Positions 9,037-30,104 of a stretch of 32,000 nucleotides of DNA are shown here, piece after piece. Every line of letters begins with the position of its first letter. Within the stretch, counting starts at the first letter, position 1. Source of the DNA: Breoghania sp. L-A4 (lineage in GTDB: Bacteria; Pseudomonadota; Alphaproteobacteria; Rhizobiales; Stappiaceae); the NCBI RefSeq assembly GCF_003432385.1, contig NZ_CP031841.1:4103549-4135548 (forward strand), written 5' to 3'. Below the pieces are notes generated by a model. The model worked only from the letters and a program-made list of their open reading frames with translations, was not told the origin of the DNA and made no database searches. The position numbers and the translations under genes were made by a program.

Positions 9037-9105
9037 CGCGATCAATTCCTTTCGGTGGCCCGCCTTGTCACAACGGCGTGTGGCCTGTCCTTTCAAGATA
9101 AGATG

Positions 9106-10905: not shown

Positions 10906-11440
10906 CGATGGAAACGCAAGGACGCGCGGCGATACATCGCGCGAACGGTCGAGCGAACGGCAAGAGCCGACTGCTGTCCCGCGTGTGATGCCTTGGATTG
11001 GAACGGGAATCCCCGTTTCCGCACGGCTGGCAAGGAGGTAAGTGCCTCTTCAGTGACACCGGGGGTTGGAGACCCCGACTGAGACCAAAAAAGCCCTCTT
11101 ACGTCGTTGCTTTAAGCCGTCCGGTTTTGCCGCCTTGGGACCCTTGAGGATCCGGGTAAGGCGACTGCCACTTATTCGATGGACGACCACGGGCACGTGC
11201 GAATTTGGGCACGCATTGCATCGCGCCCTTTTGTTCCGAATGCAAGATTTTTTTGCGCCCGGGGGCAAGTTTTTTCGGGCGGGATCCGGCCCGGGGCCCA
11301 GCCGCCCCGCCCGCGACCGCGTCATGCCGCCATTCGTTGAGGAACCAAGTCCCCTCCCCGCCGTTGATTTGGCTCAACGCGGGCGGCGCGGCTTCGGCCG
11401 AGACTGTTCGTTACACTCCAACCAGCGACGGACACGCAGC

Positions 11441-12070: not shown

Positions 12071-12110
12071 CCCTCACCCCAACCCTCTCCCCATGGGAGA
12101 GGGGGCGGAT
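12071..12110. repeat. REP-like element, family A
   Basis: CCCTCACCCCAACCCTCTCCCCATGGGAGAGGGGGCGGATGCGG. Nearly identical to 17028-17063, and its GGGGGCGGAT(A/G)CGGC tail matches 7303-7318. Confidence 0.75.
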
Positions 12111-12156: not shown

Positions 12157-13056
12157 TCACGGCATCGCCAGAAAGCGGCGCACCAGCGCGACGAAGGCCT
12201 CGGGTCGCTCCTCGTGCGGCAGGTGACCGGCGTCGGGCAGGATCACCGACCAGCAATCGGCCAGCCGCATCTGGATGTTGACCGAGTTCTTCACCGGCAG
12301 CACGCCGTCGCGCGATCCCCAGACCGACAGCACCGTGTGCCGCAATTCCGGCAGGCGCTTCTGCAGGGCGCCTTCGGAGAACTGGCGCAGGGTCTTGAGA
12401 AAGGCGCGCTCGCCATGATCGCGCAGCAGCAGGCCGTAGCAGTGATCGACCAGCGCCGCGTCGGGCACAGTGGCGGCGTAGGATTTTCTCAATTTGGAGC
12501 GGAAGATCGCCTTGCCGGTGCCGTGCCGGCGCAACAGCCCCGCGACCGCCCAGCGGATCAGCCCGCTGCGCACCAGCTTCTCGATTGAATGGGCGCCGCC
12601 GGCGATCCCGACGCTGTTGACGATGATCAGCCGGCCGACGAGATCCGGCGCGCGCAGGGCCATGGTGATCGCCACCGCCGCGCCGAAGGAACTGCCCGCC
12701 ACGTGGACCCGCGCGATCCGCAACGCGGCGCACAGCGCGATGATCCTGCCGGCGATGGCGTCGAGCGAATAGTCCTCGCCGGTTTTCGACGAGCGGCCGT
12801 AACCGGGCATGTCGACAGCCACCACCCGATGGCTTTGCGACAGCGGCGCGAAGACCGCCTGCCAGGTGGTCATGCACAGCGGGATGCCGTGCAGCAGGAG
12901 GATCGTCTCGCCCTCACCGGCCTCGCGATAGCAGATCTCGAAGCCGTCCAGGCTCACGGTCTGGGCATGAGGGTACATCTCGTCGCGGAATCCCCCCGCG
13001 TGGAGATCGGTCTTGGCGACCCGCGATCCGGAAAGATTGCGCGGCAGGAACATCAT
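12157..13056 (-). CDS. Alpha/beta-fold hydrolase (catalytic motifs intact)
   Basis: 299 aa. HG oxyanion motif (ILLLHGIP), nucleophile elbow GSSFG (VAGSSFGAAVA) and C-terminal DAGHLPHEERPE. The start ATG overlaps the upstream stop (TAATG). Confidence 0.85.
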   Translation of the reverse strand: MMFLPRNLSGSRVAKTDLHAGGFRDEMYPHAQTVSLDGFEICYREAGEGETILLLHGIPLCMTTWQAVFAPLSQSHRVVAVDMPGYGRSSKTGEDYSLDAIAGRIIALCAALRIARVHVAGSSFGAAVAITMALRAPDLVGRLIIVNSVGIAGGAHSIEKLVRSGLIRWAVAGLLRRHGTGKAIFRSKLRKSYAATVPDAALVDHCYGLLLRDHGERAFLKTLRQFSEGALQKRLPELRHTVLSVWGSRDGVLPVKNSVNIQMRLADCWSVILPDAGHLPHEERPEAFVALVRRFLAMP

Positions 13057-14795
13057 TACCCCCTTTGCGCCGCCTGCGGCGCGGCGACGCCTTCGCGCCT
13101 GAGAAAGCCGCGCAGCACATCGTTGAAGGCCTCGTGCATCTCCCAGTTCATGAAATGCGCGCCGCCGCGCATCAGCGCCAACTCGCTGCCCGCAATGGCG
13201 CGCTGCAGCGCGTCTGCGTGATGCAGCCGCACCAGCCGGTCCTGCTCACCATGGATGATCAGCGTCTCGCAAGCGATCTCCGACAGCGGGTGTGCGGGCC
13301 GGTGCGTGTTCCCCGCCAGCGTCTGGGCGGAAAACGACGCCGCGTCCTGGCGGTTGACCCGGTAAAACGTCTTCAGCTTGTAGAGCTCGTCGGCCCTCTC
13401 GCCCCGATAGTCCTCGGAGAACACCCAGGGGATCGTCTCGTCGAACAGCGCCTGCATGCCCTCGCGCGCAGCCTTCTCCCGCCACGCAGCCGTGGTTCTC
13501 AGGATCAGATCGTCGGCCGTCTCGTAAGCCGAGACCAGCACCAGCCTGCCGGCGAGATCCGGGCGCAGCAACGCCACCTGCTGGGCGATCAGCCCGCCCA
13601 GCGCCAGCCCGACGATGCTGACGCCACGCTCGCCGAGATGATCAAGCAGCGCGATGACATCGCCGGCCATGTCCCGCGTGTTCGCGCTGTCGGGCAGCGC
13701 GGAACTGCGCCCCGCGCCACGGTTGTCGACGGTGATCAGCCGGAAGGCGTCGTTGAGGGTGCCGCACTGGCGCGACCAGAAGCTGGTGTCCGTGCCCACC
13801 GGACAGAGGAACAGCACCGGCGGGCCCTCGCCTTCGGTGCGGTAGCACAGCGAGCCGCCGTGGCTGAGCGGCAGCCGCTCGGCATGCACCTTGCGGTAGA
13901 AATGATCGAAGATGTTGGCGACAAGCGAGCCGCGGTCGGGGATGCTCTCGAGCACCTCGCTGGGATCGTAGTGCGTCATGCCGCCATCGAGATAGTCGTT
14001 CTCGTAGCGGTGGGTGTAGGGATCGAACTGGAAGATGTAGGGAATGGCGCGCGGCTTGCGGCGCTCAAGCAGGATCAGCACGACCTCGCTCGCCACCAGC
14101 GAGGCCGCCATCAGGCAGGCGGAGGCGATGGATGGGCCGGTGCCGCGGAGAAAGTCGGTGTTGGAGTCGCCCTTTGACACATCGAAGTAGCTGATGTGCG
14201 CCAGCTTCGGCACGACGGAACAGGCGTAGCGCAACTGCTTTTCCATTGGCGGCATGTCGTCCGTGATGCCGCAGAAGGTCTCCATGTCCATGCCGTCGGG
14301 ATCGAACACCTGCATGGAGGCGCTGAAGCCGACGGGCGAGCCCATGAGGATGTAGAGCCCGCGGGCGCGCGCCGCGCGATGCAGCCTCAGGTGATCCTCG
14401 ATGGCGTAGAAATCGATGGCGTCGATGCAGATGTCGGCATCGCCCAGAACGGCATCGGCGTTGGCGTCGCAGAATTTCTCCGCGAACGTCCGCACGCTGG
14501 CGTCGGGATTGATGGCCAGGATCTCACGCTCCACCACATCGACCTTGCGCGCGCCCACGGTGGTGCTGTCGGCGCCCGCCTGGCGGTTGATGTTGGCGAG
14601 CTCGAAGGTGTCGGGATCAACGATATTGAAGTTGCCCACGCCCATGCGCGCCAGCGTCACAAGACAGTTGGAGCCGATGCCGCCGGTGCCGACGACGGCG
14701 ACGGTGGCGCGCGCGAGCCGCTCCTGCTCGGCCTCGCGCAGGATGCCGATGTTGCGCGAAAAGGATTCCCGGTACGTCTCGCTCAGCGCCATCAT
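13056..14795 (-). CDS. ThiF/MoeB/HesA-type E1-like adenylyltransferase fused to a degenerate alpha/beta-hydrolase domain
   Basis: Real start is ATG 14795 (MMALSETY; RBS GGGAGGG; ATGA overlap with the upstream stop). N-terminal domain: VAVVGTGGIGSNCLVTLARMGVGNFNIVDPDTFELANINRQ. C-terminal domain aligns to ABH but has CPVG in place of HG and GLALGG in place of GxSxGG. The Asp (HGEQDRLV) and His (GGAHFMNWE) are retained. The upstream 166 aa of the track ORF is an Arg-rich shadow overlapping the next gene. Confidence 0.85.
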   Translation of the reverse strand: MMALSETYRESFSRNIGILREAEQERLARATVAVVGTGGIGSNCLVTLARMGVGNFNIVDPDTFELANINRQAGADSTTVGARKVDVVEREILAINPDASVRTFAEKFCDANADAVLGDADICIDAIDFYAIEDHLRLHRAARARGLYILMGSPVGFSASMQVFDPDGMDMETFCGITDDMPPMEKQLRYACSVVPKLAHISYFDVSKGDSNTDFLRGTGPSIASACLMAASLVASEVVLILLERRKPRAIPYIFQFDPYTHRYENDYLDGGMTHYDPSEVLESIPDRGSLVANIFDHFYRKVHAERLPLSHGGSLCYRTEGEGPPVLFLCPVGTDTSFWSRQCGTLNDAFRLITVDNRGAGRSSALPDSANTRDMAGDVIALLDHLGERGVSIVGLALGGLIAQQVALLRPDLAGRLVLVSAYETADDLILRTTAAWREKAAREGMQALFDETIPWVFSEDYRGERADELYKLKTFYRVNRQDAASFSAQTLAGNTHRPAHPLSEIACETLIIHGEQDRLVRLHHADALQRAIAGSELALMRGGAHFMNWEMHEAFNDVLRGFLRREGVAAPQAAQRG

Positions 14796-15601
14796 AACCC
14801 TCCCGCGGCAACCGCGCGCCGCTCTTGCTGGCGCGACGCGAAGCGCGCGCGGAACCGCGCGCCATAGGCGTTCAGACGCGCCGCCGAGCTCCTGCCGACA
14901 GGCACGAAGACGTCGCCCGCCGCAATGTCCAGTTTCGAGCGGACAAAATCGTTGATCCGGCGATCGGGCGCTTGCGGCAAGGGGTTGTAGAAGAAGTCGC
15001 ACTCGTTGCGCAGGATCAGGTTTTCGGGCTCGAAGGTCACATCCGGGTCGTATTTGTCGACCACCGCGCGGGCCACGCGGATCACGTCCGGCGGCGGGAT
15101 GTCCCGCGCGTTGGGATAGACATGCGCGAGCTTCCCCAGCATGGAGTAGACCAGCGGGCTTTGCGAAATCGAGGTGACATAGACCGTGTCGCCGTGCCGC
15201 GCGACGAGACCGGAGATCTGTTCGAGAAGGGCGAGAAACAGGAACGACAGAAGCCCCGTGCCCTGGATGTCGCGCGAGAAGTTCATCGAACACAGATGCA
15301 CGATGGTGCCGTTTATGCCGCTGCCCGGCCCGCAGTCGAAGTCCGTGTCGCAGCCGGCGATGCCCTTGAAGACGCCGTCCTCGAAGACAAGCGCCAGCGC
15401 GGTTGCGAGATACAGCGGTGAGATCTTGAAGATGGCGCGCATGCGCGCGACGTGGCTCCCGTCCCAGCCGCGCGACAGCGTGGCGATGGTCAGGATCTCG
15501 TCCTCGAGCGCACGCAGCTCATTGCGATACGCCTTGGCGTCGCGCAGGATCACCAGCTCGTAGCGGCGAAACGGGATCCTTTCCGCGCCCGTAAACATCA
15601 C
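14792..15601 (-). CDS. Hypothetical protein (weak GNAT-like acyltransferase pattern)
   Basis: 269 aa with normal amino-acid composition, coupled at both ends. SRDIQGTGLLSFLF loosely resembles the GNAT acyl-CoA motif. I recognise no family with confidence. Confidence 0.6.
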   Translation of the reverse strand: MMFTGAERIPFRRYELVILRDAKAYRNELRALEDEILTIATLSRGWDGSHVARMRAIFKISPLYLATALALVFEDGVFKGIAGCDTDFDCGPGSGINGTIVHLCSMNFSRDIQGTGLLSFLFLALLEQISGLVARHGDTVYVTSISQSPLVYSMLGKLAHVYPNARDIPPPDVIRVARAVVDKYDPDVTFEPENLILRNECDFFYNPLPQAPDRRINDFVRSKLDIAAGDVFVPVGRSSAARLNAYGARFRARFASRQQERRAVAAGGL

Positions 15602-16872
15602 GCCTCTCCGCTCAGATGGCGCACCGCATCGTCCAGACAGCGGGCCGCGCCGGCCACATAGGCTTGCCGCCAGCGCGGATCGTCGGGGCAGAAAGCCCGC
15701 GTCATCCGCGCCCGCGCCCTGGCGAGCAACGCCGGGTCATGCGCGAAATGCCGGTGGGCGATGGTGTCCAGCCGCAGCGCCAGGAAGGTGCGCAGCGCAG
15801 GCCCCGTGCCGCACTCGAAGGTAACGCCGCAGAGATCGCGGCATGAGATCCCGCGCATCAGACCGGTGAGCAGATCGCCACGCACGCTGTAGAGCGCGTC
15901 GTCGCCCGCGTGGCTCATGGTGATCGGCGTCCGGAAGATCGCCTCGGCGCCTGCGACATCGGCCGCGGTGGCGAGCAACTGGCATTGACCGTAGCTCCCG
16001 ATGCCGGAATGCAGGTCAACGAAAATCGCCTTGTCCAGCGCGCCTTCGCCAAGCATGCCCGAGAGATAATCCGCAAGCGCGCGGATCTCGGGCTGCACCG
16101 CGTCACCGCCGTAAAACAGCCCGTCTGGGTTGACGAACTGACCGCCCGCCAGCGCCTCCTTCAGCGCGGATATGCCGCCCAGGCCCATCAGCCTGAGAAA
16201 AAAGACCGGCATCCAGAACGCGCCGAGCGCGCGGAATTTTCCCACGCTGTTGACCCAGTCATCGATGGCGGCGGCGCGGGCGTCCACCGTCCGGTCAACC
16301 GCTGAATGGTCGAGGACATTGCGGTTGAGATCGACATTGGCGCCGTTCACCCGGCGGCGCGCCTTCATGCCCGCGGGATTGATGACGTGCACCACGAGCA
16401 CGTGGACGGTTTCGAGGCTCCACGCCCGCGCGCGCAGAAACGCGATCTGCGCGGCGCTGCCGCAATAGCCCTCGATGCCGTGCAGCCCGCTGGTGACGAC
16501 CAGCTTGCGCGGCGACGTCAGATCGCCCGCGTGCGCCACGTCGATGACGTCATCGGCGCCGCCGATGGGCAGGTGATCAACGCGCAGATCCAGATCGCGG
16601 CAAAGATCCAGGAACGCCGCGCGGGCGGCCTCAAAGGTGGGGTGGAAATCGGAAACCTCATCGCCTGTGGTCCGGGGCGCGCCTCGCGCATGTCGGATCG
16701 CCGAAACCGCCGCTCCAACCGCGCTGTCATCCCGGCCTCCGAGCCGGGACCCAGTAGCCGCCGGCCCCTCGGCTCTTGCCGTTGGTTCTCGGCCTCGTTG
16801 TGGCGACGGGTCATCGCGCGGGCTGTCGGTTACTGGGTCCCGGGTCTCGCCTTCGCTCGCCCGGGATGACAA
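15598..16872 (-). CDS. DUF2817 / M14-like zinc carboxypeptidase-fold protein; start codon unresolved
   Basis: The homology-like part begins near 16650 (SDFHPTFEAARAAFL). Zn motifs are VVTSGLHGIEGYCGS (HxxE) and FVDLHSGIGSYG. The nearest upstream in-frame canonical start is TTG 16872. The track start at 17220 reads through the REP repeats. Confidence 0.7.
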   Translation of the reverse strand: MSSRASEGETRDPVTDSPRDDPSPQRGREPTARAEGPAATGSRLGGRDDSAVGAAVSAIRHARGAPRTTGDEVSDFHPTFEAARAAFLDLCRDLDLRVDHLPIGGADDVIDVAHAGDLTSPRKLVVTSGLHGIEGYCGSAAQIAFLRARAWSLETVHVLVVHVINPAGMKARRRVNGANVDLNRNVLDHSAVDRTVDARAAAIDDWVNSVGKFRALGAFWMPVFFLRLMGLGGISALKEALAGGQFVNPDGLFYGGDAVQPEIRALADYLSGMLGEGALDKAIFVDLHSGIGSYGQCQLLATAADVAGAEAIFRTPITMSHAGDDALYSVRGDLLTGLMRGISCRDLCGVTFECGTGPALRTFLALRLDTIAHRHFAHDPALLARARARMTRAFCPDDPRWRQAYVAGAARCLDDAVRHLSGEA

Positions 16873-17168
16873 TCGGGGCGAAGCCTGGACATCGCGGGAT
16901 GACTGCGCAGGGTGGTGTTCGCTCGCCCGGAGGTCAGCGCCCGACAAACCTCTCCCATGGGGAGAGGTCGGCGCGCATGCGCCGGGTGAGGGGTGAAAAA
17001 CTCGACGTATCCAGGAGAGCGCTGATCCCCTCACCCCAACCCTCTCCCCATGGGAGAGGGGGCGAGCCGTTCGCCGCGAAGCCACTTGCGGTGACCCTGC
17101 TCCAAGGACAGCGAGGGACCGCCTCCCCGACAACGCCTCACCCCACACTCTCCCCATGGGAGAGGGGG
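16725..17168. repeat. Mosaic of at least two REP-like repeat families inside the operon
   Basis: Family B is an inverted pair: TGTCATCCCGG..CCGGGACCCAGTAGCC (16725-16759) and GGTTACTGGGTCCCGG..CCCGGGATGACA (16828-16871), plus a partial copy around 16885-16935. Family A copies lie at 16949-16993 (inverted), 17027-17063 and 17137-17168. Confidence 0.8.
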
Positions 17169-17206
17169 TGCCGCCATCCGTCGTGGGGCGCGCGTCCGGT
17201 TGTGCC

Positions 17207-18463
17207 TCACGCCACCGCATCGGCCGGCTCCCGAATGTAGGCCTCGGGCGGCGTGCGTTTCCCCGCCTCCATGGCGTCGGTGTCCACCACCAGCATGACC
17301 TTGTCGTACTTCGTCGGCGCGTTGATCCACTTCATCTCGTCCTCGAGATGATGCCAGTCGCGCGTCATGATGGTTTGCAAATCGTCGATGCTCTTCACGT
17401 CGCCCTTCCACTGCTGCGAGCGGTTGTAGAAGGCGTCGTCGTGGCAGCTCTTCACGCAGGCCAGGCACTCGATGCAATCGTCGGGGCGGACCGAGACGGC
17501 GGGGCCCTTGGGCAGCCGCGCCAGCACCCCCTTGGGACAGACGTAGACGCAGTCGTAGCAGCTGGTGCATTTGACCGGATCGATGATCGGCTCGAAGTGG
17601 CTGCGGTAATCGCCCCTCGTGATCCAGTGGCGCGGCGTGGTCTTGTAGATCGTCGAGCTGCCGCAGCCGTCGAGCGAAATCAGCAGCACCACGCCGCCAA
17701 TCGTCGCCGTCCAGATGGCGAATTCGCTCAAGGTGAAGTCGTGGAACAGGCCGACCAGCGCCAGACCGGCGACGCCGACGCCGAAGTGGCTCAGCGTCTT
17801 CAGCCACAGTCGCTCCTCGGGCAGCACGTCCCACAGGGCGAACCAGGTGAGATGGAACAGCAGGATCAGCCCCATGGTGATCAGCGTGTAGGCGGGGAAG
17901 AAGAAGATCAGAAAGAAGATCGTCATGGCGTAGACCAGCGCCGTGGAGACCGCCTGCTCCATGCGGTCCCAAAAGCCGAACTGGGCGCGGGTCATCTCCG
18001 AGGTGCGGCGGTAGTTGCCGGCGATATAGGCGGGCAGATCATCGAAATGGGTCGGCCCCCACACGAGCTTGAAGCCGGTGCGCGCCTGCACCTCCTTGGC
18101 GTTGACGCCGGGCGCGGCATAGGGCGGCGCGATGATCCGCCGCGCCAGCACCTTGTCCTTGATGCCGGAGACGTTGATGGCGTCGATGATGTCGAATTCG
18201 TTGAACTCGTTCATGCCGGCCGCGCACCAGACGTTGGAGCCCTTGGAGTTGGCGACGATCAGGTAGCAGTCGATGCCGGAGAGGCGCTTGAGCAGCCGGT
18301 GCACGGTGAGCGTGTAGTTGCCGCTCAAGAAGACCGGCGAATGCTCGTCGGGGCGGCCGATCTCGCGCAGGCCCAGCTCGCAGGGGAAATTGAAATGCCG
18401 GAACAGCACGTGGAAGATCTCGTAGAACCTGAGCTTGATCATGCCCCAGATCCGGCCCGCCAT
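17207..18463 (-). CDS. Fused HgcA-like corrinoid domain / 4-TM domain / HgcB-like 2x[4Fe-4S] ferredoxin
   Basis: 418 aa. The N-terminal region aligns by eye to the HgcA cobalamin-binding domain. Matches are SPVFLSGNYTLT, the cap helix SKGSNVWCAAGMNEF, and GFKLVWGPTHFDDLPAYI (compare GF.V.WGPVRAEDLPAYL). Four hydrophobic helices span residues 171-264. Cys clusters are CTSCYDCVYVCP and CIECLACVKSC. The RBS GGGGAGGAAG lies inside the end of the upstream gene. Confidence 0.8.
   Translation of the reverse strand: MAGRIWGMIKLRFYEIFHVLFRHFNFPCELGLREIGRPDEHSPVFLSGNYTLTVHRLLKRLSGIDCYLIVANSKGSNVWCAAGMNEFNEFDIIDAINVSGIKDKVLARRIIAPPYAAPGVNAKEVQARTGFKLVWGPTHFDDLPAYIAGNYRRTSEMTRAQFGFWDRMEQAVSTALVYAMTIFFLIFFFPAYTLITMGLILLFHLTWFALWDVLPEERLWLKTLSHFGVGVAGLALVGLFHDFTLSEFAIWTATIGGVVLLISLDGCGSSTIYKTTPRHWITRGDYRSHFEPIIDPVKCTSCYDCVYVCPKGVLARLPKGPAVSVRPDDCIECLACVKSCHDDAFYNRSQQWKGDVKSIDDLQTIMTRDWHHLEDEMKWINAPTKYDKVMLVVDTDAMEAGKRTPPEAYIREPADAVA
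17444..17569 (-). other. Two CX2CX2CX3C [4Fe-4S] ferredoxin motifs (HgcB-like module)
   Basis: C299-C309 CTSCYDCVYVCP and C330-C340 CIECLACVKSC. There are no cysteines in the 78-aa tail after C340. Confidence 0.8.
17672..17953 (-). other. Predicted 4-helix transmembrane region of the HgcAB-like protein
   Basis: The four helices are AVSTALVYAMTIFFLIFFFPAY, TLITMGLILLFHLTWFALWDVL, LKTLSHFGVGVAGLALVGLF and FAIWTATIGGVVLLISL. Judged by eye, without a TM predictor. Confidence 0.6.
18212..18235 (-). other. Cap-helix motif NVWCAAGM (putative Co-ligating Cys80 codon at 18224..18226)
   Basis: I checked the codons base by base: AAC GTC TGG TGC GCG GCC GGC ATG. The published HgcA signature is N(V/I)WCA(A/G)GK. 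Here the terminal Lys is replaced by Met. Confidence 0.75.
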
Positions 18464-18464
18464 G

Positions 18465-19118
18465 TCACTTCCTCCCCACGATGAGCTGGAAGGAGGACAT
18501 CGGCAGTCTCTTCGTCTCCTCGATGGAAAAGCCCGCCGCCTCGATGACGCCGCGCAGGTCCTTGATGGGGAAGCAGGCCCGGCGCAGGATGGCGAACTGC
18601 GGCACCCACATGATCGCCATGACCACCCGGTAGAGCGCCCGCAGCGCCCTGTTCTCCGGCCACACCTCGTCGGCGATCATGATGCGCCCGCCGTCTTTCA
18701 GGATCGTGCGGCAATCGCGGAAGATGTAGTCGAGGTATTCGCGTGACAGCTCGCCCACCACCATGGTGGAGACGATCGCGTCGAGGCTTTCGGGCTCGAA
18801 ATATTTGGGCAGGTCGGTGACGCTGTCCTTGATGATGGTGAAGCGGTCGGCGCAGTCGTTCTTCGCGATCGTCTTGCGGCACTCCTTGAGCATGCTCTCG
18901 GAGATGTCCATGCCGGTGACGGTGGCGCCCTTGTTCACGCATTTGACGCCCAGCGAGCCGGTGCCGCAGCCGATGTCCAGCACCCGGTCGCCGGGGCGGA
19001 CGCGGTTCGCGATCTCGGTCTTGATGCGGTCGATCTTGCCGCCGGTCAGAAGCTTGACCGACCAGTCGTAACGCTCGGGCGCGTATTCGACCCAGACCAT
19101 CCAACTGTACATCAGCAT
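18465..19118 (-). CDS. Class I SAM-dependent methyltransferase
   Basis: 217 aa. Motif I VLDIGCGTGSLGVKCVNKGATVTGMDISESML. RBS GGGAGA. The stop lies 1 nt before the next start. Confidence 0.85.
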   Translation of the reverse strand: MLMYSWMVWVEYAPERYDWSVKLLTGGKIDRIKTEIANRVRPGDRVLDIGCGTGSLGVKCVNKGATVTGMDISESMLKECRKTIAKNDCADRFTIIKDSVTDLPKYFEPESLDAIVSTMVVGELSREYLDYIFRDCRTILKDGGRIMIADEVWPENRALRALYRVVMAIMWVPQFAILRRACFPIKDLRGVIEAAGFSIEETKRLPMSSFQLIVGRK

Positions 19119-19146: not shown

Positions 19147-20604
19147 TCAGACCCTCTCCCCGGCGGCCGGCGCCGCGCGCGCGTCGCGGTAGCCGCGCAA
19201 CTCGCCGCTCAACTCCGTCGATGTGGGGAAATGCGCCCGGTCGAGCACGGGGAAGATGACGATCTCGACGCCCGGCGGCGCCTGCACCGCGATACCCGTC
19301 TCCTGATCGTGCTGCTTGGACACGATGATCCGCTTGAGCGCGCCGCCCAGCGTGTAGGTCTGCGGCGGCAATGCTTCCGCGCCGAGCCGCGTCACGCTGA
19401 TCGCACACGGCGGCGAGGCGCCATTCGTCGCCTGGCGCGCCTCGATATGCGCCGACTGGGATTCCGCCACCCAGGTAAAATCCGTCCGCGTGGCGCCCGC
19501 GTTATCAAGAGAAAGCGGAGCTGCGGCGGCGAGGCCCGTGTCGTCATGCGGCTCGGTGATCGGGGTCGGTGCGCCGCAATACATGCAGGTGTTGTCCCGC
19601 GCGATGCCGACCACCTCCGCATCCAGCCCGTAGCGCCGCACGAGCGTTCCGCCACACGAGGCGCAGCGCGTGTCCGACACGCCATCCTTGAAGGTGTTGC
19701 CGACGTAGCAGAAGCGAATGCCCGCCTGACGCGCCATGTGCTGCGCCATCAGCAGGATTTCCGGATCGGTCCGGGTGGTGTTCACATAGAGATAGGCGGG
19801 GTGGAAGCCGACGTAGTGCAGCGGCACCCGGTCGCCGAGGTTCTCCAGCACCCAGTCGTTGGTGCGGCCGATCTCCTCCGCGTTGTCGTTGCGGCCGGTG
19901 ATGATGAGCTGGCTGATTTCCAGATGCCGGCCGGAGGCGTGCACCTGCTTGATGCGGTCGAGCACCGGCTGCAGCCGCGTGCCGCCGGTGAACTTGCGGT
20001 AGAAGCGGTCGTCCATCGACTTCAGCGAGATGGAGAAGATGTCGATGCAGCCGATCAATTCGTCGACCGGCGCCTCCTCGATGTAGAAGGCGGACTTGTA
20101 AAGCGTGCGGATACCGGCTGCCTGCGCCAGCCTCGAGGTCTCGACCACGAATTCGTGCCAGACGACGGGATCGTTGTAGGTCCAGGAAATCACGCCGATG
20201 CCGGTGGCAAGGCAGGTCTCGACGATCTGCTCAGGGCTGTAGTGCTTCACGTCGTGCGGGTTGAGATGGCGAACCTGCGAGGTCTTCCAGTTCTGGCAGA
20301 AGTCGCAGGACATCATGCAGCCGATGTTGCCCAGGCTGAGGATGCGCGCGCCGGGGCGGTAGTGGTAGACGGCCTCGGTCTCGATGAACTCCATCGTCGC
20401 CTCGACCGACTTGCCGTAGTTGAAGGTGCGCAGCTCCCCGCCGACGTTGCCGCGCACGCCACATTTGCCCATCTTGCCCGGCGCGATCCGGCAATTGCGC
20501 GGGCTGAGCTTGCACACCACGCCGTCCGCGGTGCCCTCGGCCCTTTGCCAGAAATCGGCCGGCGCGTGTTCGCGCGTCCATTGGACCTCCGGGATGATAT
20601 TCAT
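19147..20604 (-). CDS. Radical SAM protein, PflA/AmmeMemoRadiSam (AmrS)-like, with C-terminal zinc ribbon and an extra approx. 115-aa tail
   Basis: CX3CX2C in LGNIGCMMSCDFCQNWKTS. N-terminal VVCKLSPRNCRIAPGKMGKCGVRGN resembles the AmrS N-terminal Cys region but with one Cys position occupied by Ser. CASCGG...CMYCG forms a zinc ribbon. I prefer ATG 20604 (RBS GAGGGAG) over GTG 20610. Confidence 0.8.
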   Translation of the reverse strand: MNIIPEVQWTREHAPADFWQRAEGTADGVVCKLSPRNCRIAPGKMGKCGVRGNVGGELRTFNYGKSVEATMEFIETEAVYHYRPGARILSLGNIGCMMSCDFCQNWKTSQVRHLNPHDVKHYSPEQIVETCLATGIGVISWTYNDPVVWHEFVVETSRLAQAAGIRTLYKSAFYIEEAPVDELIGCIDIFSISLKSMDDRFYRKFTGGTRLQPVLDRIKQVHASGRHLEISQLIITGRNDNAEEIGRTNDWVLENLGDRVPLHYVGFHPAYLYVNTTRTDPEILLMAQHMARQAGIRFCYVGNTFKDGVSDTRCASCGGTLVRRYGLDAEVVGIARDNTCMYCGAPTPITEPHDDTGLAAAAPLSLDNAGATRTDFTWVAESQSAHIEARQATNGASPPCAISVTRLGAEALPPQTYTLGGALKRIIVSKQHDQETGIAVQAPPGVEIVIFPVLDRAHFPTSTELSGELRGYRDARAAPAAGERV

Positions 20605-20742
20605 GGTCACACTCCCTCACGCCACACCTGGGACAAGGGGACCCGCCGCCGCTCCCAGCCCGGGTGCGGCGTGATGACGTCCCTTGCGATGGATCCCGTC
20701 GGGCAACCCGTTTCCGCCCGGTCAATTCCGGGGCAGGCTTGC

Positions 20743-22050
20743 CTAATCGAGTATCAGTTCGGACAGTCCGAAGTTGACCTCGCCCTCCCTAGGCGGGCGC
20801 AGGTCGTCCTCGGTATAAAAGCGCTCCCACACCGCGTTGGAGTAAAGCTGGCCCTTGCGCGTCAGATGCACGTCGTACTCGCCGTCGACCAGATAGTCCT
20901 CGGCCGCCAGTTCATCGATGATCTCGCCGTAGACCAGCTTCATCGGCACGCCGAAGCGCGCCTGGAAATCGTCCTTGTAGACGTTGCCGACCTTCAGCCC
21001 CCGGATCATCACCCGGCGCATTTCCTGGTCCTTGGACAGATAGGTGGAGAAATCCAGCACCGGCTCGCCGCGATTGATGCGCGCGATGTAGTCCTTGATG
21101 TCGGTGATGTTGGTGTACATGAACTCTTGGATCGCCGACTTGGACGACACGCCGAAACCGATCATCGGCCACGTGCGCCAGTAGTAGTCGAGGAAGCGGC
21201 AATAGATCCTGCACCGGTCGGGATGGTAGTAGCCCGAGGTGCTGCCCGTCACATAGCCGGCCGCCTCCAGCAGGTTGAAGGCGGTCAGCGCCATGGCCTT
21301 TTCCTCGGCGATCTTCGGCAGCTTCATGCCGCGCGCCACGATCCACTTGTGGTAGGCGGTGTTGGTCCAGACCTCGAGCGGATAGGCGGTGATGCAGGAA
21401 AACTCGAGATCGATGGCGCGCCTGACCGAATCCTCCCAGATCTCGCTGGTCAGCCCGATGAGCGGATAGATCAGATCCACATTCACATGGGTGAAGCCGG
21501 AGTTGCGGATGATGTCGACGGCCTTGTCGATATCCTCCCGGCCATGCGGCCGGTTGGTATCCTTGAGGATCTTCTCATCAAAGCTCTGGATGCCGATGGA
21601 AAAGCGGTTGAAGCCGGCGTCAAACAGCGCGTCGACCTTCTCCTGCTCGACGCTCCTGGGGTCGAACTCGATGGCGATTTCCGCGTCCGCCGCCACATCG
21701 AACGTGCCGCGCACGGCCTCCAGGATGCGGATCAGCTGCTCCGACGACAACAGCCCGGGCGTGCCGCCGCCGAAATAGATCGCCTTGATCTCGAAGCGCG
21801 GAAACACCGGATTGTCCGGAAACCGCTCGATCTCGACGCACAGCGCCTGCACGTATTGCTCGCGCAGGTCGAGCTTTGTGTTCACGTAGACGGTGTAGTC
21901 GCAGAAATGGCACTTGGTCGAGCAGAACGGGATATGGATATAGATCGATGCGTCCTGCATCTTGAAGAAATCGTTGAACTCGCTGTAGGTATATTTGAAC
22001 GGATACGTATGAATGTTACGTCTGATATATTTCTCTGATGCATCGGACAT
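20743..22050 (-). CDS. HemN-like radical SAM protein (oxygen-independent coproporphyrinogen oxidase family / class C radical SAM methyltransferase type)
   Basis: 435 aa. IYIHIPFCSTKCHFCDY (CX3CX2C), IYFGGGTPG, and a C-terminal HemN_C-like region. RBS GGAGGTG. Confidence 0.85.
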   Translation of the reverse strand: MSDASEKYIRRNIHTYPFKYTYSEFNDFFKMQDASIYIHIPFCSTKCHFCDYTVYVNTKLDLREQYVQALCVEIERFPDNPVFPRFEIKAIYFGGGTPGLLSSEQLIRILEAVRGTFDVAADAEIAIEFDPRSVEQEKVDALFDAGFNRFSIGIQSFDEKILKDTNRPHGREDIDKAVDIIRNSGFTHVNVDLIYPLIGLTSEIWEDSVRRAIDLEFSCITAYPLEVWTNTAYHKWIVARGMKLPKIAEEKAMALTAFNLLEAAGYVTGSTSGYYHPDRCRIYCRFLDYYWRTWPMIGFGVSSKSAIQEFMYTNITDIKDYIARINRGEPVLDFSTYLSKDQEMRRVMIRGLKVGNVYKDDFQARFGVPMKLVYGEIIDELAAEDYLVDGEYDVHLTRKGQLYSNAVWERFYTEDDLRPPREGEVNFGLSELILD

Positions 22051-22089: not shown

Positions 22090-23595
22090 TCAGGCAAGCA
22101 GACGCAAATGCTCGAACGACGTGTCCGGGCTGCCGGCATGCTTGCGATTGTTGGGCATCATCGGGCGGCCGCAGGAGACGAAGAGCGCGCTCAGGCGGCC
22201 CCGGTCGCGTGCGCGCAGGGCCTCGCCGCCACGCGCGATGATCCGGACCGCGCTGCGCACGAGCGCGAACTGGAAGGCGCATTTGGCCGGATCCGGCGCG
22301 TTGATGTCGCCGGTGGCGATGGTGTTTTCCTGCTTGCAGCCGCCACCGCAGATGTAGCGGATGGAGCAGCGCGAGCACACCGGCTGCGCGTTGACGCCCG
22401 TCCGCCAGGCCGCCACTTTGGCGTCATCAACGCCCGCGTGAAAGTCGCCGACCTGGAAGCCCTCGTCGCCCACCAGCCGGTGGCACGGCATGATCGACTT
22501 GTCGGGCGAGAAGGTGAAATAGTTGCGCCCGCCGGAACAGAAGCCGTTGGCGAACTCGCCGTCCAGGATCATCCGCATCACCGTTTCCACCTCGAGGATC
22601 CCCTTGAAGCGGTTTGCGGGCGTGAACAGATCGAGATACCGGTCGTGCAGCGCTTCGAACTCGGCCTCGATCTTGGCGTTGTAAGGTGCCTGCCGGTCCT
22701 CCAGATCCGCGGTGTCGAAGGCCGCGTCGCCATAGACGGCGGCGTGGTTTTCCTCCGCCACCGCGGCCGGGAGAATCTGGAACCAGTCGAAAATGTTCAT
22801 GTCGTAGAGATGCCGCATGTCCTCGACCAGCGAGGAGTCGGGATAGGGCACGTAGGTCATCCGCGCCACCAGCGTGATGTCCTCGGACGCCGCGCGCACC
22901 TGCTCGCAGTTGCGCGCGATCGCCTCCTGCGAACCGCGCCCCGACTTGCGCGGCCGGTTGCGGTCGTGCGTCTTCGCGCCGCCGTCGATGGACACGGACA
23001 CGATGAACCGGAACCGGTGAAACAGCGACAGCTCGCGCCCGGTCAGCTTCGTCGTCAGGTTGGTGGAGACCCGGTAGATGAACTCGATGCCCAGCCGCGC
23101 GCGCATCTCCAGCGAGCGCGCGCACAGCTCCTCGATGACCGGAAAATTCATCAAGGGCTCGCCGCCGAAAAACTCGAACCGCACGGTCTCGCCCGGGCGT
23201 GTCTTCTCCTCGATGAAGGCGACAATGGCGTCGACGTCCACGTCCTTCGACAGCTTGCCCTTGAGCCGGCCGTAGTCGCCGCCTTCGGCGAAACAGTAGG
23301 TGCAGCCCAGGTTGCAGAAGGCGGTGAGATTGATGTTCAGCGCCAGATTGGCGCCGGCCAGCGGATCCGCCTTCGACAGCGCGCGGGCGTTGTAGGGCGC
23401 CAGCACCCCGGAGGCCCGCAGGCTCTCGAGTTCCGCCTCGGCCTCTTCCGGCCAGACCGGGTTGTCGCGGGTCAACTGGTCGCGCAGGGCGTTCGAGATC
23501 GTGAAAAGACGATGGGACTCACTGTCCAGTAAAACGGTGCCGCCGGTTTCCGGATCGACAGTGACGATCTCAAAATTTCGGGGCTCAATGCCCAT
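22090..23595 (-). CDS. Radical SAM/SPASM-domain maturase with N-terminal PqqD-like (RRE-like) extension
   Basis: NLTAFCNLGCTYCFAEGGDYG (CX3CX2C, at about residue 105). SPASM region CSGGRNYFTFSPDKSIMPCH ... CSRCSIRYICGGGC (CX2CX5CX3C). N-terminus FEIVTVDPETGGTVLLDSESHRLFTISNALRDQL resembles PqqD/RRE strands. I prefer ATG 23595 (RBS TGAGG) over GTG 23607. Confidence 0.85.
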   Translation of the reverse strand: MGIEPRNFEIVTVDPETGGTVLLDSESHRLFTISNALRDQLTRDNPVWPEEAEAELESLRASGVLAPYNARALSKADPLAGANLALNINLTAFCNLGCTYCFAEGGDYGRLKGKLSKDVDVDAIVAFIEEKTRPGETVRFEFFGGEPLMNFPVIEELCARSLEMRARLGIEFIYRVSTNLTTKLTGRELSLFHRFRFIVSVSIDGGAKTHDRNRPRKSGRGSQEAIARNCEQVRAASEDITLVARMTYVPYPDSSLVEDMRHLYDMNIFDWFQILPAAVAEENHAAVYGDAAFDTADLEDRQAPYNAKIEAEFEALHDRYLDLFTPANRFKGILEVETVMRMILDGEFANGFCSGGRNYFTFSPDKSIMPCHRLVGDEGFQVGDFHAGVDDAKVAAWRTGVNAQPVCSRCSIRYICGGGCKQENTIATGDINAPDPAKCAFQFALVRSAVRIIARGGEALRARDRGRLSALFVSCGRPMMPNNRKHAGSPDTSFEHLRLLA

Positions 23596-23682
23596 GGCGT
23601 GCCTCACACTTTTCAGGTGTTCGACCGAGCGAGCAGACGCGCTGCAAAGGGGCGCGTTTGAAAAACTAATTTATATATTTAC

Positions 23683-24330: not shown

Positions 24331-26652
24331 ATGAACCGGATCATCTGGGCCGACACGCTGTCCGACTACGCGCTGGCCGCGAGCGCCCATCGCAGGCTGG
24401 GTGCGTTTTGCGACGCCGCCGCCTGCTATCCGCTGTTGAGTTCAGCCTCCGGGGCCGCCCGGCTGCAGGCCGCCTTGCGTCCCTACGGGAGTGCTCTGAC
24501 CGCCTTTTCCGAGATTGTGCGCGGCGCGGATCCGGCGGACCGCGGCCGGTTTCTGGCCGCGCAGCTCGAATGGAGCGATGCCACCCCGATCAGCCTTGCC
24601 CCCGACGCCCCGCCGTCCGCTCTGCTGGACGCGCTCATGCGCTCGCTCGAGACCGGCCGCCCGATCGTCTTCGACGCGGCGGCGACGGGCGCCAAGAGGC
24701 CGCCCGCGCCGTCGCCCAGCATCGACGGCGCCAGGCTCATGATCGTGAACCGCAACAGCGCCCTGTCGCTGCCCGCCGCCCTCTATGCCGACGCCACCGG
24801 CAGGCGGCTGATCACGCTGGAGACGCTGGAGGACCTGGAACCGCAACTGTCCGGACAGCGCCCGGCGTCGGTCATGCTGGCGTCTGACCGCCACGATTTC
24901 ACCAAGAGCCGCCTGCAGGCGCTGCTGGCATGGAGCCAGGGCGCGGACGGGCCGGCCGATTTCGGAATTCTGTCCGGACGCTCGGCGAAGCAGGCGTCGG
25001 GCATCGTCGCGCGGCTGCTGATGCATCGCGATTTTCATGCCGGCGGCCAGAGCCTGATGCGGCCGCCGGATCTCGAACCGATCCCGGCCGCGGCAATGAC
25101 GCCGATGGAATATTACGTCATCGGCGCGCACGGCAACGAAATGCATCTCGATCACATGGACGACGAGGTGCTGTGCGGCGCCAACGCCGCGCCCGATCCC
25201 TCCGGCTTCGATTGCACGCGCAACTGCCCCTATGACAACCGCTTCGCGGCCCGCGAGATCCCCGCCCACGCATTACTGTTGCTCAGCTGCGACGCCTTCA
25301 CCCTGGCCGATGGCCTGGCGCCGCCCGGCGTCAATCTGCTTATGAGCCTTCTCGACGGCATGGCCGCGAGCGTGCTCGCGCCCTTCAAGCACGTCCAGTT
25401 CAACGAAGGCCTCATTCTGCTGGCCGGCGCGCTGCTCAAGGGCGGATTTTCGCTCGGCGGCATCGCCCGGCGGCTGAACGAGAGGGCGCGCAACGGCACG
25501 CTGCCCGATCCCGCCTATCTGGTGCTCGGCGATCCGGAACTGACCATGGCCGCGCAAGACCCCATCGTTGCGGCGCGGGTCGCGCCCGAGCCGGGCGGGC
25601 TTGTCCTGGAGCTGCGCTCGAACGGCGCGCCGGCGCTCGAAACCACCATCGCGTATGATCCCGACGATACAGACGGACCCTTGCCGCCGCTAGCGCTGGA
25701 GCCGCTCGGCGAGACGCTGCGCGATCCCGACATCTTCTACACGCTGACCCCGCGCCCCGCCGCCCGCGCGCTGACAATCACGCTGTTCGCCCGCGACCGG
25801 CTCCCCAAGGGCCCGCTGCTGTTTCGCGTCGAGCAGGCCGCGCGCCTGGGGCCGGTCGACCATGACGACATCCTGGGCCGGCTGAACCGCCTGTCGCTGA
25901 TCTCCGAGATCGGGCTGGACAACCGCGCGGCAAGGTGCGCGAAAGCCAGCATCCTGTCGTTCCTGCGCGCAGCCGCCGGCTTTCCCCGCCCGGTCGAACT
26001 GGCCATGGGCCAGTCGATGGTGCGCAACATCGATGCGCTCGTGGCTGCCGATTTCAAGAGCCTGCGCCGCGCCTCCCTGCGCGCCATGCTCGAGGAACTG
26101 GAACACAAGCGGGTCTGGATCAGCCAGCGCTACGCCCATGCCTATCCGCACATCGCGCGCGCGGGCCCGCGGGCCGACGGCGTCTGTCCGCATTGCGCAG
26201 AGCACACCACCTGCTGGCGCTACGAAGACACCTGCCTGCATTTCCCGCCGCGCAGGCTGTGGGTGTGCAACCAATGCGGCATCATCGCCGACGTTCCGGC
26301 CGAGCCCACCGCCACCATCGCGCTCGCCACCGTCGCGGCCCTGCCCGCGCCCACCCAACGGCAGACCTTCACCATCGCCAATTGCACGCAGGACCCGCTG
26401 GGCATCGGCTATTGCCTGCATTTCAACGCCTGGGGACAGCTCGGCATCAAGGCGGACGGCAACATCGGCGAGGCGACGCTGGCGCCGGGCGAGGAGATCG
26501 AGCGCACCGCCACCTTCCACTTCCCCGAGGGCTTTCCCGACGACGTCGTCTCCATGCAGTTCTTCGCCATGACCGACGCGATGGATCTGTATTTCCTCAG
26601 CCAGAAGATGCGCGCCCAGGTGCGCCACGTCCAAAGAGGTCAGACGCCATGA
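24331..26652 (+). CDS. Large orphan protein with caspase/CHAT-like His-Cys pattern and a C-terminal zinc ribbon
   Basis: 773 aa from ATG 24331, where GC3 rises sharply; the TTG 24199 extension has low GC3. YYVIGAHGNEMH (His267) and HALLLLSCDAFT (Cys320) are followed by LLDGMAASVLAPFKHVQFNEGLILLAGALLKGGFSLGGIARRL, an order that resembles the CHAT domain core. CPHC...CNQC lies at 26185-26277. Confidence 0.6.
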   Translation: MNRIIWADTLSDYALAASAHRRLGAFCDAAACYPLLSSASGAARLQAALRPYGSALTAFSEIVRGADPADRGRFLAAQLEWSDATPISLAPDAPPSALLDALMRSLETGRPIVFDAAATGAKRPPAPSPSIDGARLMIVNRNSALSLPAALYADATGRRLITLETLEDLEPQLSGQRPASVMLASDRHDFTKSRLQALLAWSQGADGPADFGILSGRSAKQASGIVARLLMHRDFHAGGQSLMRPPDLEPIPAAAMTPMEYYVIGAHGNEMHLDHMDDEVLCGANAAPDPSGFDCTRNCPYDNRFAAREIPAHALLLLSCDAFTLADGLAPPGVNLLMSLLDGMAASVLAPFKHVQFNEGLILLAGALLKGGFSLGGIARRLNERARNGTLPDPAYLVLGDPELTMAAQDPIVAARVAPEPGGLVLELRSNGAPALETTIAYDPDDTDGPLPPLALEPLGETLRDPDIFYTLTPRPAARALTITLFARDRLPKGPLLFRVEQAARLGPVDHDDILGRLNRLSLISEIGLDNRAARCAKASILSFLRAAAGFPRPVELAMGQSMVRNIDALVAADFKSLRRASLRAMLEELEHKRVWISQRYAHAYPHIARAGPRADGVCPHCAEHTTCWRYEDTCLHFPPRRLWVCNQCGIIADVPAEPTATIALATVAALPAPTQRQTFTIANCTQDPLGIGYCLHFNAWGQLGIKADGNIGEATLAPGEEIERTATFHFPEGFPDDVVSMQFFAMTDAMDLYFLSQKMRAQVRHVQRGQTP

Positions 26653-29859: not shown

Positions 29860-30104
29860 GATGGTCTCGCTTTCACTCTTGCCTGAATTCGATATAGCAC
29901 CTCCTCCGCGCCGCACAATCTAAATCGTATACAAAATTTGTGCATTTCGTATTCGATATGAGCAAAAATTGTGCACGCATGCGGGCAATTGCTGCCCTGG
30001 AAAATAAAATTCAACAAATACAAAATCTTACAGGCCCGCTCATTCTGGCATGGCGGTTGCAAACCCCTCGCCCTGTCAGTCACCAGAGGGGCGTGCGCGT
30101 GCCA

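Follow-up and report, generated by a model that had tools for sequence, protein, structure and literature searches.

Does a protein built like the mercury methylase HgcAB, but made as one polypeptide in an aerobic alphaproteobacterium, methylate mercury, or does it carry methyl groups for some other purpose? The question is raised by a 32,000-nucleotide stretch of DNA from Breoghania sp. L-A4 (Stappiaceae, Hyphomicrobiales; contig NZ_CP031841.1, positions 4,103,549 to 4,135,548), which was analysed as a whole and is called the window below. The gene in question (window positions 17207-18463, minus strand) encodes an HgcAB-like fusion protein of 418 aa. Taken together, its sequence, its relatives and its gene neighbourhood suggest that this protein is probably a membrane-anchored corrinoid/iron-sulfur methyl carrier in a relay leading from S-adenosylmethionine (SAM) through cobalt to a substrate, which would tailor a peptide-derived product, and not a mercury methylase.

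The protein is 100% identical to the RefSeq entry "HgcAB-like fusion protein [Breoghania sp. L-A4]" and matches the NCBIfam equivalog NF043039 ("HgcAB-like fusion protein") over profile positions 3-349 of 350 with 350.1 bits against a cutoff of 285 (E 1.9e-104). As in that family, a corrinoid domain with a cap Cys, a transmembrane (TM) region and a dicluster ferredoxin are united in one polypeptide, and the gene is accompanied by the partner gene of the family, cpaM (NF043040). From the N-terminus the corrinoid-binding domain is followed by four TM helices, a ferredoxin domain of 2x[4Fe-4S] type and a C-terminal tail free of Cys. The translated open reading frame (ORF) contains both SPVFLSGNYTLT and GFKLVWGP, as well as the cap-region motif NVWCAAGM (18212-18235, minus strand), whose Cys80 is predicted to ligate cobalt and in which Met84 stands at the position of the HgcA Lys. 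In the Pfam scan the CdhD family PF03599 was matched with 39.3 bits against a cutoff of 24.8, over profile positions 270-379 only (the last ~110), together with several Fer4 families. The TM region (residues ~164-265; 17669-17974, minus strand) closes with a near-invariant D265-x-C267-G-S, and its four hydrophobic segments in the hydropathy profile correspond to the long helices 164-187, 190-209, 221-240 and 245-265 of a confident AlphaFold2 (AF2) model (pLDDT 92, pTM 0.86). The even number of helices would bring the corrinoid and ferredoxin domains to one side of the membrane, which is compatible with their fusion. The HgcB-like ferredoxin domain contains two CX2CX2CX3C [4Fe-4S] motifs at residues 299-309 and 330-340 (17444-17569, minus strand), and among the 12 cysteines of the protein none lies beyond residue 340, where the second motif ends.

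Comparison of the model with the PDB by Foldseek gave the published HgcAB model as the top match (9a0b_A, E 7.6e-12, 289 columns), followed by corrinoid domains from CFeSP, a corrinoid/iron-sulfur protein (4c1n_G, 2h9a_A, 4djd_C, 2ycl_A) with a root-mean-square deviation (rmsd) of 2.2-2.5 Å over ~127 residues, while the C-terminal domain matched HgcB (9a0b_B, rmsd 1.9 Å). Conservation extends over all three parts of the protein: in alignment A1 the cap C80 (62/62) and the eight cluster cysteines are invariant, M84 is kept in 59 of the 62 sequences, the corrinoid-domain residues N49, G75, N77, W79, C80, P113, G119, G136 and P137 are also invariant, D265 is present in 62/62 and C267 in 58/62, and C66 is near-invariant. 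The first-pass annotation, a reading of the letters alone, had proposed an HgcA-type corrinoid domain, four TM helices, two CX2CX2CX3C motifs, a Met in place of the cap Lys and the loss of the HgcB C-terminal cysteines. All of these features were recovered, with PF03599, NF043039 (350 bits, E 1.9e-104) and Foldseek in agreement on the first, and hydropathy and AF2 on the second; the similarity to HgcA and CFeSP is significant in both the profile and the structure searches.

Despite this kinship, the protein, judged by its sequence, is not a true mercury methylase, since it failed every criterion that could be tested: profile scores, cap residue, TM helix number, HgcB cysteines and tree placement. 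The HgcA equivalog NF040863 gave 144.6 bits against a cutoff of 275 and the HgcB equivalog NF040864 gave 34.2 bits against 99, both below threshold. The high-stringency cap signature of Hg-MATE, N(V/I)WC(A/S)(A/G/S)GK, is matched in its Cys and broken in its Lys, which is replaced by Met. The published HgcA model has five TM helices and a separate HgcB, while here four helices are present and the ferredoxin is fused; the count for this protein was taken from the AF2 model and the five helices of HgcA from the published one, since a hydropathy counter applied across families was too noisy. Mercury methylation requires Cys73 of HgcB, placed ~12 residues past its second cluster motif, as well as one or more C-terminal Cys, whereas among 107 full-length clade members a Cys pair after the second cluster motif was found in none (0/107), and 83 of the 107 have no Cys there whatever. 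The interpretation of the gene as a plain hgcAB was rejected accordingly, all the HgcA and HgcB membership tests run having come out negative.

The Met at the cap, treated by the first-pass annotation as a trait of this copy, turned out to be a clade-wide signature. The motif NVWCA[AV]GM is carried by ~108 of 110 close relatives, while the unfused CdhD-only matches of the same search carry NVWCAAGK; a one-off Lys to Met mutation was rejected, the Met being characteristic of the whole clade. Nor are fused proteins confined to a handful of genomes, as was first stated: an exhaustive search of 1.84 billion representative proteins returned 1047 matches, 94 of them representative clusters at E<=1e-30, ferredoxin motifs are present in at least 75 of the matches listed, and a curated NCBI model exists. 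The Met-type proteins account for two representatives at 50% identity, after which the score drops from 448 to 241 bits. Under this gap stand many other fused proteins with diverse cap endings (AAGV, AAGA, AATG, AACG, ASAG, SSLA and others), and the ending AAGK is nearly restricted to unfused proteins.

In a neighbour-joining tree of 161 sequences (243 columns of the corrinoid and TM region, 200 bootstraps) the Met clade was recovered in 200/200 and the Lys-type group in 198/200 replicates, and the fused AAG[V/A] proteins appeared as sisters of the Met clade. This is a distance tree without a CFeSP outgroup or the archaeal fused references; it separates the protein from HgcA and leaves the rooting unsettled. 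The placement relative to HgcA and fused HgcAB that had been called for earlier thus puts the protein outside the Lys-type HgcA clade, with fused proteins as its sisters, and not nested among bona fide methylating HgcA. A separate group in the superfamily is formed by 11 fused proteins of 430-540 aa (P0154, P0155, P0165, P0170, P0176, P0178, P0181, P0184, P0191, P0206, P0240), whose cap endings include NIWCSSLA and whose N-terminus is extended by ~140-180 aa with no obvious SAM-binding motif.

These data bear directly on the possibility that the protein is a working methylase of Hg, As, Se, Te or a similar metal or metalloid, its neighbours being incidental or handling the organometal product. 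Such an activity would suit the retained cap Cys and HgcA-like fold, the near-invariant extra C66 and C267, which could bind metal, and the idea that Cys-on ligation favours methyl transfer to metals; mercury methylation by Breoghania was left "untested" by Lin et al. However, the protein scores under the HgcA and HgcB model cutoffs and stands outside the Lys-type clade, the HgcB Cys73 and C-terminal Cys pair are missing, both fused hosts that were tested did not methylate mercury, and no metal transport or resistance gene was found in any Met-clade locus, where the same eight biosynthetic genes recur instead. A metal methylase is therefore considered very improbable for the Met clade, even though a mercury-related neighbourhood does occur in a distant relative described below.

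The likely source of the methyl group is indicated by the preceding gene. CpaM (18465-19118, minus strand; NF043040, 253.5 bits against a cutoff of 180) is a class I SAM methyltransferase of 217 aa and the proposed corrinoid loader. Its stop codon TGA is followed by 1 nt and then by the hgcAB-like ATG, exactly the spacing read at first pass, with a Shine-Dalgarno-like GGAGG within the end of cpaM. Among the 31 loci compared (cited below by L numbers), a CpaM orthologue lies directly upstream of the HgcAB-like gene in 30, and in the remaining one, from Chloroflexota (L006), the two are fused into a protein of 646 aa. The overlapping arrangement is also found in the sister clade and for a 32%-identical Streptomyces homologue, and in several lineages across the superfamily (P0027, P0096 and many others) a methyltransferase has independently been fused to the N-terminus. 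There is a precedent in HgcAB itself, which takes its methyl group from SAM through Cys-ligated methylcobalamin (Zheng 2024). Given adjacency or fusion in all 31 loci, the recurrent fusions and this precedent, the simplest reading is that CpaM loads a SAM-derived methyl group onto the corrinoid of its partner, and the role of the HgcAB-like protein as a corrinoid methyl carrier loaded by CpaM is, as far as homology and gene order can indicate, quite likely.

The Streptomyces pair deserves separate mention. In Streptomyces sp. CNQ-509 (CP011492.1; L005:8800-17300) a CpaM-like gene and an HgcAB-like gene (358 aa, with 32% identity, the cap NVWCASAG and a single complete ferredoxin motif) are followed by genes for a P-type ATPase, a DUF169 protein, an ArsR-type regulator, a MerA-like oxidoreductase, MerR and MerB. 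It is this neighbourhood that speaks in favour of a metal substrate, and the L005 subfamily, unlike the Met clade, may be linked to mercury or other metals.

The tight bond with CpaM also bears on the proposal that the protein takes up or remodels corrinoids and binds B12 through Cys in the manner of the transporter BtuM. The membrane-embedded architecture with a predicted Cys-on site would agree with it, Cys-on binding being documented in BtuM. There is, however, no relation to BtuM in fold or sequence, the best matches being HgcA and CFeSP; no transporter components are co-conserved, and the ferredoxin domain, the SAM methyltransferase partner and the biosynthetic neighbourhood would be left unaccounted for. 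Among the explanations considered this is the most remote.

The neighbourhood itself is an operon on the minus strand in the order radical SAM/SPASM enzyme, HemN-like enzyme, AmmeMemo-type enzyme, CpaM, HgcAB-like protein, DUF2817 protein, 269-aa protein, ThiF-hydrolase and alpha/beta hydrolase, so that the radical SAM/methyltransferase context claimed by the first-pass annotation is confirmed by three radical SAM genes and cpaM. A core of eight genes (the three radical SAM enzymes, a hydrolase, CpaM, the HgcAB-like protein, the 269-aa protein and the ThiF-hydrolase) occurs together in 13 loci spread over four phyla (Alphaproteobacteria, Acidobacteriota, Actinomycetota and Chloroflexota), the sources being Breoghania, Rhizobium-like and Telmatospirillum metagenome-assembled genomes (MAGs), Bradyrhizobium, Bradyrhizobiaceae, Thermoanaerobaculia, Streptosporangiaceae and Chloroflexota. 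No acs or cdh gene was found in the window.

The first enzyme of the operon (22090-23607, minus strand; 505 aa) matches the SPASM model TIGR04085 with 49 bits against a cutoff of 27 and gives partial matches, all under their own cutoffs, to PapB, nif11-type, QhpD and SCIFF maturases, which suggests that it is nearest to the thioether-forming peptide maturases. It is followed by a HemN-like radical SAM enzyme of class C type (20743-22050, minus strand; 435 aa; Radical_SAM and HemN_C), which lies at or under the HemW, HutW and HemN cutoffs and has orthologues of 53-77% identity in the full clusters, and by the AmmeMemoRadiSam-type radical SAM enzyme (19147-20610, minus strand; 487 aa; TIGR04337, 269.5 bits against a cutoff of 220) with a conserved C-terminal extension of ~135 aa, for which no Pfam match was obtained at E<=10. 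According to Pfam, the B12-binding domain PF02310 is absent from all three radical SAM proteins.

Three radical SAM enzymes in one operon need a reductant, and the HgcAB-like protein might accordingly be an electron-delivery protein for them, with a vestigial or regulatory corrinoid domain. Its 2x[4Fe-4S] domain is fully conserved, and the membrane anchor could link it to respiratory donors in an aerobe. Against this, the corrinoid-domain residues are conserved as strongly as the cluster cysteines, a dedicated SAM methyltransferase, needless for an electron carrier, is always adjacent or fused, and the CpaM/HgcAB-like pair is also found without radical SAM neighbours. This explanation is judged quite improbable, and the methyl carrier is preferred.

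Downstream of the HgcAB-like gene lies a DUF2817 protein (15598-16872, minus strand; PF10994, 196 bits), which is M14 carboxypeptidase-like and whose start is uncertain; in L004, L007 and L009 an M20 peptidase takes its position, a swap seen outside Alphaproteobacteria. The conserved 268/269-aa protein (14792-15601, minus strand) has an orthologue in every full cluster and no Pfam or NCBIfam match; a PDB sequence search gave nothing useful, and the fold alone was informative, the AF2 model (pLDDT 88) showing a GNAT-type acyltransferase fold with Foldseek matches to YhbS, AAC(2') and NatD at E~1e-5. Next come a fusion of a ThiF-type adenylating (E1-like) domain with an alpha/beta hydrolase (13056-14795, minus strand; ~580 aa from the ATG at 14795; PF00899, 147 bits, and Abhydrolase_1), whose orthologues are 48-61% identical, and an alpha/beta hydrolase of 299 aa as the last operon gene (12157-13056, minus strand; Abhydrolase_1/6), with orthologues in the full clusters.

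Divergent from this operon are two genes overlapping by ATGA. The first encodes a ~773-aa conserved protein with a Cys-rich C-terminal segment (24331-26652, plus strand; orthologues in L003, L004, L010, L012, L027 and L034), for which no Pfam, NCBIfam or PDB sequence match was found, also when three pieces were run against Pfam at E<=10; its C-terminal part shows a zinc ribbon-like CPHC…C…C…CNQC pattern. The second encodes an ATP-grasp enzyme of the L-amino-acid-ligase type (26649-27935, plus strand; ~428 aa; ATP-grasp_4 and LAL_C2), which also has orthologues in other loci.

Not all of these genes are needed to keep the HgcAB-like protein company. In minimal contexts (L008, L021, L025, L028) it is accompanied by just CpaM and the radical SAM enzyme of AmmeMemo type. 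In L008 this trio stands among condensation and adenylation genes of non-ribosomal peptide synthetase (NRPS) type, an SbnA/SbnB-like pair and a major facilitator superfamily transporter, and in L028 and L021 among AMP-binding, pyridoxal phosphate (PLP), thiamine pyrophosphate and additional radical SAM enzymes. The AmmeMemo-type gene is present in 19 Met-clade loci, the 11 others being contigs of <=5.8 kb that end near the CpaM/HgcAB-like pair; since it is missing only from such short contigs, the three genes behave as a unit within the Met clade. It is missing from the sister-clade and Streptomyces loci. A gene for a ~360-380 aa protein with a faint nitroreductase-family match was seen twice, adjoining the peptide gene described below in L034 (8624-9763) and the HgcAB-like gene of the trio locus L028 (11387-12475), and may be a recurrent accessory gene.

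What could such a relay methylate? A candidate is provided by a 73-aa peptide ending in ...VGALVAACW (28034-28255, minus strand), labelled as a hypothetical protein in RefSeq and regarded here as a candidate precursor or scaffold. A profile was built from similar ORFs of 68-82 aa found upstream of the first operon gene in three other loci, and it detected the window peptide just past the ATP-grasp gene (E 1.7e-16), two tandem copies in L004 and one copy each in L010 and L017. A database search with alignment extended the family to 20 members of 67-81 aa, in all of which Cys is the last or penultimate residue, the C-termini being CW in 16, CL in three and C in one; besides Met1 the invariant positions are L15, H23, L58 and the near-terminal Cys. 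The family has no match in Pfam or NCBIfam. In the reverse direction, the context of the Stappia-type peptide returned the same cluster (L034), in which the peptide, ATP-grasp and 720-aa uncharacterized protein genes are followed convergently by CpaM, HgcAB-like, DUF2817, 259-aa, ThiF-hydrolase and hydrolase genes. A cluster-encoded precursor-like peptide with a conserved core, as is typical of scaffold pathways and of peptides made on ribosomes and modified after translation (RiPPs), is hence present.

Several of the co-conserved enzymes would be suited to chemistry at a peptide C-terminus. The ThiF-type enzymes adenylate C-terminal carboxylates (ThiS/MoaD, MccB, PaaA), and M14 and M20 enzymes are of carboxypeptidase or aminoacylase types. 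In L006 (Chloroflexota MAG JACPQD010000104.1, 2951-6253) the peptide ends in …VTVC and no M14/M20 peptidase is present, while the cluster has gained an HFCD/LanD-type flavoprotein (PF02441) and an uncharacterized 170-aa protein. The HFCD family is known for decarboxylation of C-terminal Cys, so the pairing of a Cys-ending peptide with an HFCD flavoprotein, although a single case, is suggestive. Two further loci show variation of the peptide: in the Thermoanaerobaculia MAG (L004:20575-21222) tandem genes for 75 and 81 aa (ending in AALCW and MALCW) stand at the cluster end beside an SBP_bac_5 peptide-binding protein gene, and in Bradyrhizobiaceae (L017:17046-17372) a weak profile match (E 1.4e-08) belongs to an ORF that ends in …DSLFG with no Cys, which may be a family member that has diverged or else a copy in decay. 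Next to the window peptide lies a GntR/FCD gene (29116-29916, minus strand; GntR and FCD), a possible cluster regulator of uncertain membership, which flanks the cluster in L003 too.

The peptide can also be interpreted otherwise, namely as an accessory (chaperone, immunity factor or regulator), with the trio tailoring a non-ribosomal small molecule. Some loci of NRPS type or otherwise rich in enzymes do have the trio but no peptide, the peptide is mostly helical and one member is called a "Spy/CpxP family" chaperone by JGI, no RiPP recognition element (RRE) was detected with Pfam, and an ATP-grasp amino-acid ligase and a GNAT-fold enzyme suit the assembly of small molecules. On the other hand, the conservation of the peptide is centred on L15, H23, L58 and the near-terminal Cys, with CW in 16/20; it co-occurs with a SPASM enzyme near the thioether maturases, with ThiF and with M14/M20 enzymes; the two tandem copies in L004 are typical of precursors, and in L006 a Cys-ending peptide stands alongside an HFCD-type flavoprotein. 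On this evidence an accessory peptide is improbable, although less so than the electron-delivery explanation, and the balance of genomic context tips slightly towards participation of the HgcAB-like protein in a peptide-linked pathway.

The mechanism that would follow from the methyl-carrier interpretation can be outlined as follows. The N-terminal domain would hold a corrinoid whose lower axial ligand is Cys80, reduction of Co(II) to Co(I) would fall to the C-terminal 2x[4Fe-4S] domain, and the translationally coupled CpaM would move a methyl group from SAM to Co(I). The resulting methyl-Co(III) would methylate an intermediate in the pathway of the surrounding cluster, which most likely would be assembled on, or derived from, the Cys-Trp end of the ~73-aa ribosomal peptide and would yield a small product. 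A Cys-on corrinoid methyl shuttle for a biosynthetic reaction was the function that the first-pass annotation had put forward, and it is now favoured by the cross-phylum cluster, the methyltransferase fusions and the precursor-like peptide, the assignment being one deduced from context. The most speculative step concerns the acceptor: the AmmeMemo-type enzyme might make a substrate radical that captures the methyl group, leaving Co(II) for re-reduction, which would amount to class B radical SAM chemistry divided over three polypeptides. This suggestion draws on co-occurrence and on two analogies, class B chemistry and a proposed preference of Cys-on ligation for methyl transfer as a radical or carbanion, and the generation of a radical acceptor by the AmmeMemo-type enzyme is only tentatively advanced. 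Still more doubtful is the full version, where the trio would be a three-protein "split" cobalamin-dependent radical methylation system that, in this cluster, helps to turn the peptide Cys-Trp into a small molecule or cofactor that is then released, as with PQQ or mycofactocin.

Several observations weigh against the methyl carrier in a peptide pathway. The NVWCAAGM stretch is modelled by AF2 as a loop (pLDDT 76-84) and not as a helix, the helix 89-99 coming directly after it, and a biosynthetic methyl carrier would have no obvious need of four TM helices. The peptide is seen in 8 of the 13 full loci, the others perhaps being cut off by the fetched flanks, and minimal-trio loci have no peptide, so the module is not peptide-bound. 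The ~90 aa by which the SPASM enzyme is extended at its N-terminus, searched for an RRE domain, gave no Pfam match at E<=10. An Rfam scan of the whole window revealed no cobalamin riboswitch, though a cluster that uses B12 would not be expected to have one. What is proposed for corrinoid binding, for CpaM activity and for the methyl acceptor is deduced from homology and gene context, and the Streptomyces pair beside merA, merB and merR may keep the metal link alive for part of the superfamily.

Comparison with known systems shows where the Breoghania protein would stand. With HgcA/HgcB (Parks 2013; the Cooper 2020 model; Zheng 2024) it shares the corrinoid fold, the NVWC cap Cys, a membrane domain and the 2x[4Fe-4S] partner; the ultimate methyl donor of HgcAB is SAM, and SAM is implied here by CpaM. 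It differs in being one polypeptide instead of two, in having four TM helices instead of five and Met in place of the cap Lys, in lacking equivalents of Cys73 and the C-terminal pair, and in its dedicated methyltransferase, distinct clade, aerobic alphaproteobacterial host and biosynthetic neighbourhood. Fused HgcAB proteins from Pyrococcus furiosus, Methanococcoides methylutens, Kosmotoga and Atribacteria (Podar 2015; Gilmour 2018) have the same fused architecture and fall under the NF043039 concept, while the Breoghania protein belongs to a tight NVWCA[AV]GM subclade with its own radical SAM/peptide cluster.

The CFeSP of the Wood-Ljungdahl pathway (AcsC/CdhE), a methyl carrier cycling between Co(I) and CH3-Co(III), has a corrinoid domain that superposes on that of the HgcAB-like protein and shares PF03599. 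It is, however, a soluble heterodimer with no Cys ligand, loaded from methyl-tetrahydrofolate by a TIM-barrel methyltransferase and donating to the Ni site of acetyl-CoA synthase (ACS), whereas here the corrinoid domain is joined to four TM helices and a ferredoxin; a CFeSP large subunit would have an N-terminal [4Fe-4S] domain and a TIM-barrel and would go with a small subunit and carbon monoxide dehydrogenase (CODH)/ACS genes, an arrangement not seen in the window. Class B radical SAM methylases and TsrM share the proposed chemistry, from SAM to cobalamin to an unactivated or aromatic carbon, and the class B radical SAM parallel has been drawn for HgcAB by Zheng et al. In class B enzymes PF02310 is fused to the radical SAM domain, while in Breoghania the corrinoid would sit on a separate membrane protein of unrelated fold with predicted Cys ligation, and its loading by a separate class I methyltransferase is proposed. 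The pathways of PQQ, mycofactocin and pearlins resemble the cluster in their small peptide with a conserved C-terminal dipeptide, radical SAM/SPASM enzyme and releasing peptidases. The cluster has another peptide family with a Cys-Trp core, and its ThiF-hydrolase fusion, HemN-like and AmmeMemo-type radical SAM enzymes and CpaM/HgcAB-like pair are foreign to those pathways.

Two features of the window outside the main argument were also recorded. The spacer of ~500 nt between the HgcAB-like and DUF2817 genes (16660-17207) is filled by a 37-nt palindrome-containing repeat, CCCTCACCCCAACCCTCTCCCCATGGGAGAGGGGGCG, by further CTCTCCCCATGGG copies and by an inverted repeat at 16741/16820; the 37-nt repeat occurs at 12071 (12071-12107), 17028 (identical) and 17134 (78%). 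In L034 and L003 the hgcAB-like and DUF2817 genes abut, which marks the spacer as a Breoghania-specific feature, and owing to it the DUF2817 ORF has no in-frame ATG, GTG or TTG across its residues 117-228 and its start is unclear. The Rfam scan also found a speF leader (41 bits) and the alphaproteobacterial small RNA ar45 (49 bits) at 10909-11210 (minus strand), directly upstream of a PLP decarboxylase gene of ornithine/diaminopimelate type (9714-10844, minus strand), which is followed by a saccharopine-dehydrogenase-family gene (7477-9096, minus strand); these two genes look like a polyamine operon unrelated to the cluster.

As to what is new here, the gene, the protein family and the pairing with CpaM are already catalogued. 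Fused HgcAB has been on record since Podar et al. 2015, the Hg-MATE protocol flags it for caution, and it served McDaniel et al. as outgroup. The tested hosts P. furiosus and Methanococcoides methylutens did not methylate mercury, as the first-pass annotation had stated. Breoghania sp. is named by Lin et al. 2023, who cite this very gene, and the literature refers to its host as the "only aerobic hgcA+ organism". Nothing was found in the searchable literature on CpaM, this gene neighbourhood or a function. The annotation overstated the novelty of the gene, since the family and CpaM are curated and the gene has been cited; what seems to be new is the definition of the Met clade, the conservation of the cluster, the trio as a portable unit and the peptide ending in Cys-Trp.

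In practical terms, fused HgcAB-like genes routinely surface in mercury-methylation surveys and have been set aside as paralogues since 2015. A simple exclusion rule for methylator counts can now be given: NVWCA[AV]GM together with cpaM as the adjoining gene and a radical SAM gene of AmmeMemo type. This rule covers the aerobic hgcA+ organism of the literature as well. At the same time the family acquires a biosynthetic hypothesis that can be approached genetically in aerobes that grow in culture (Breoghania, Stappia, Bradyrhizobium, Mesorhizobium). If the relay with a stand-alone radical SAM enzyme is true, it would represent a new architecture of cobalamin-dependent methylation and possibly lead to a new peptide-derived natural product or cofactor; and if the split system is true, it would give the fused HgcAB-like proteins their first function and would point to mercury methylation by HgcAB as a side branch of an older biosynthetic methyl-relay family.

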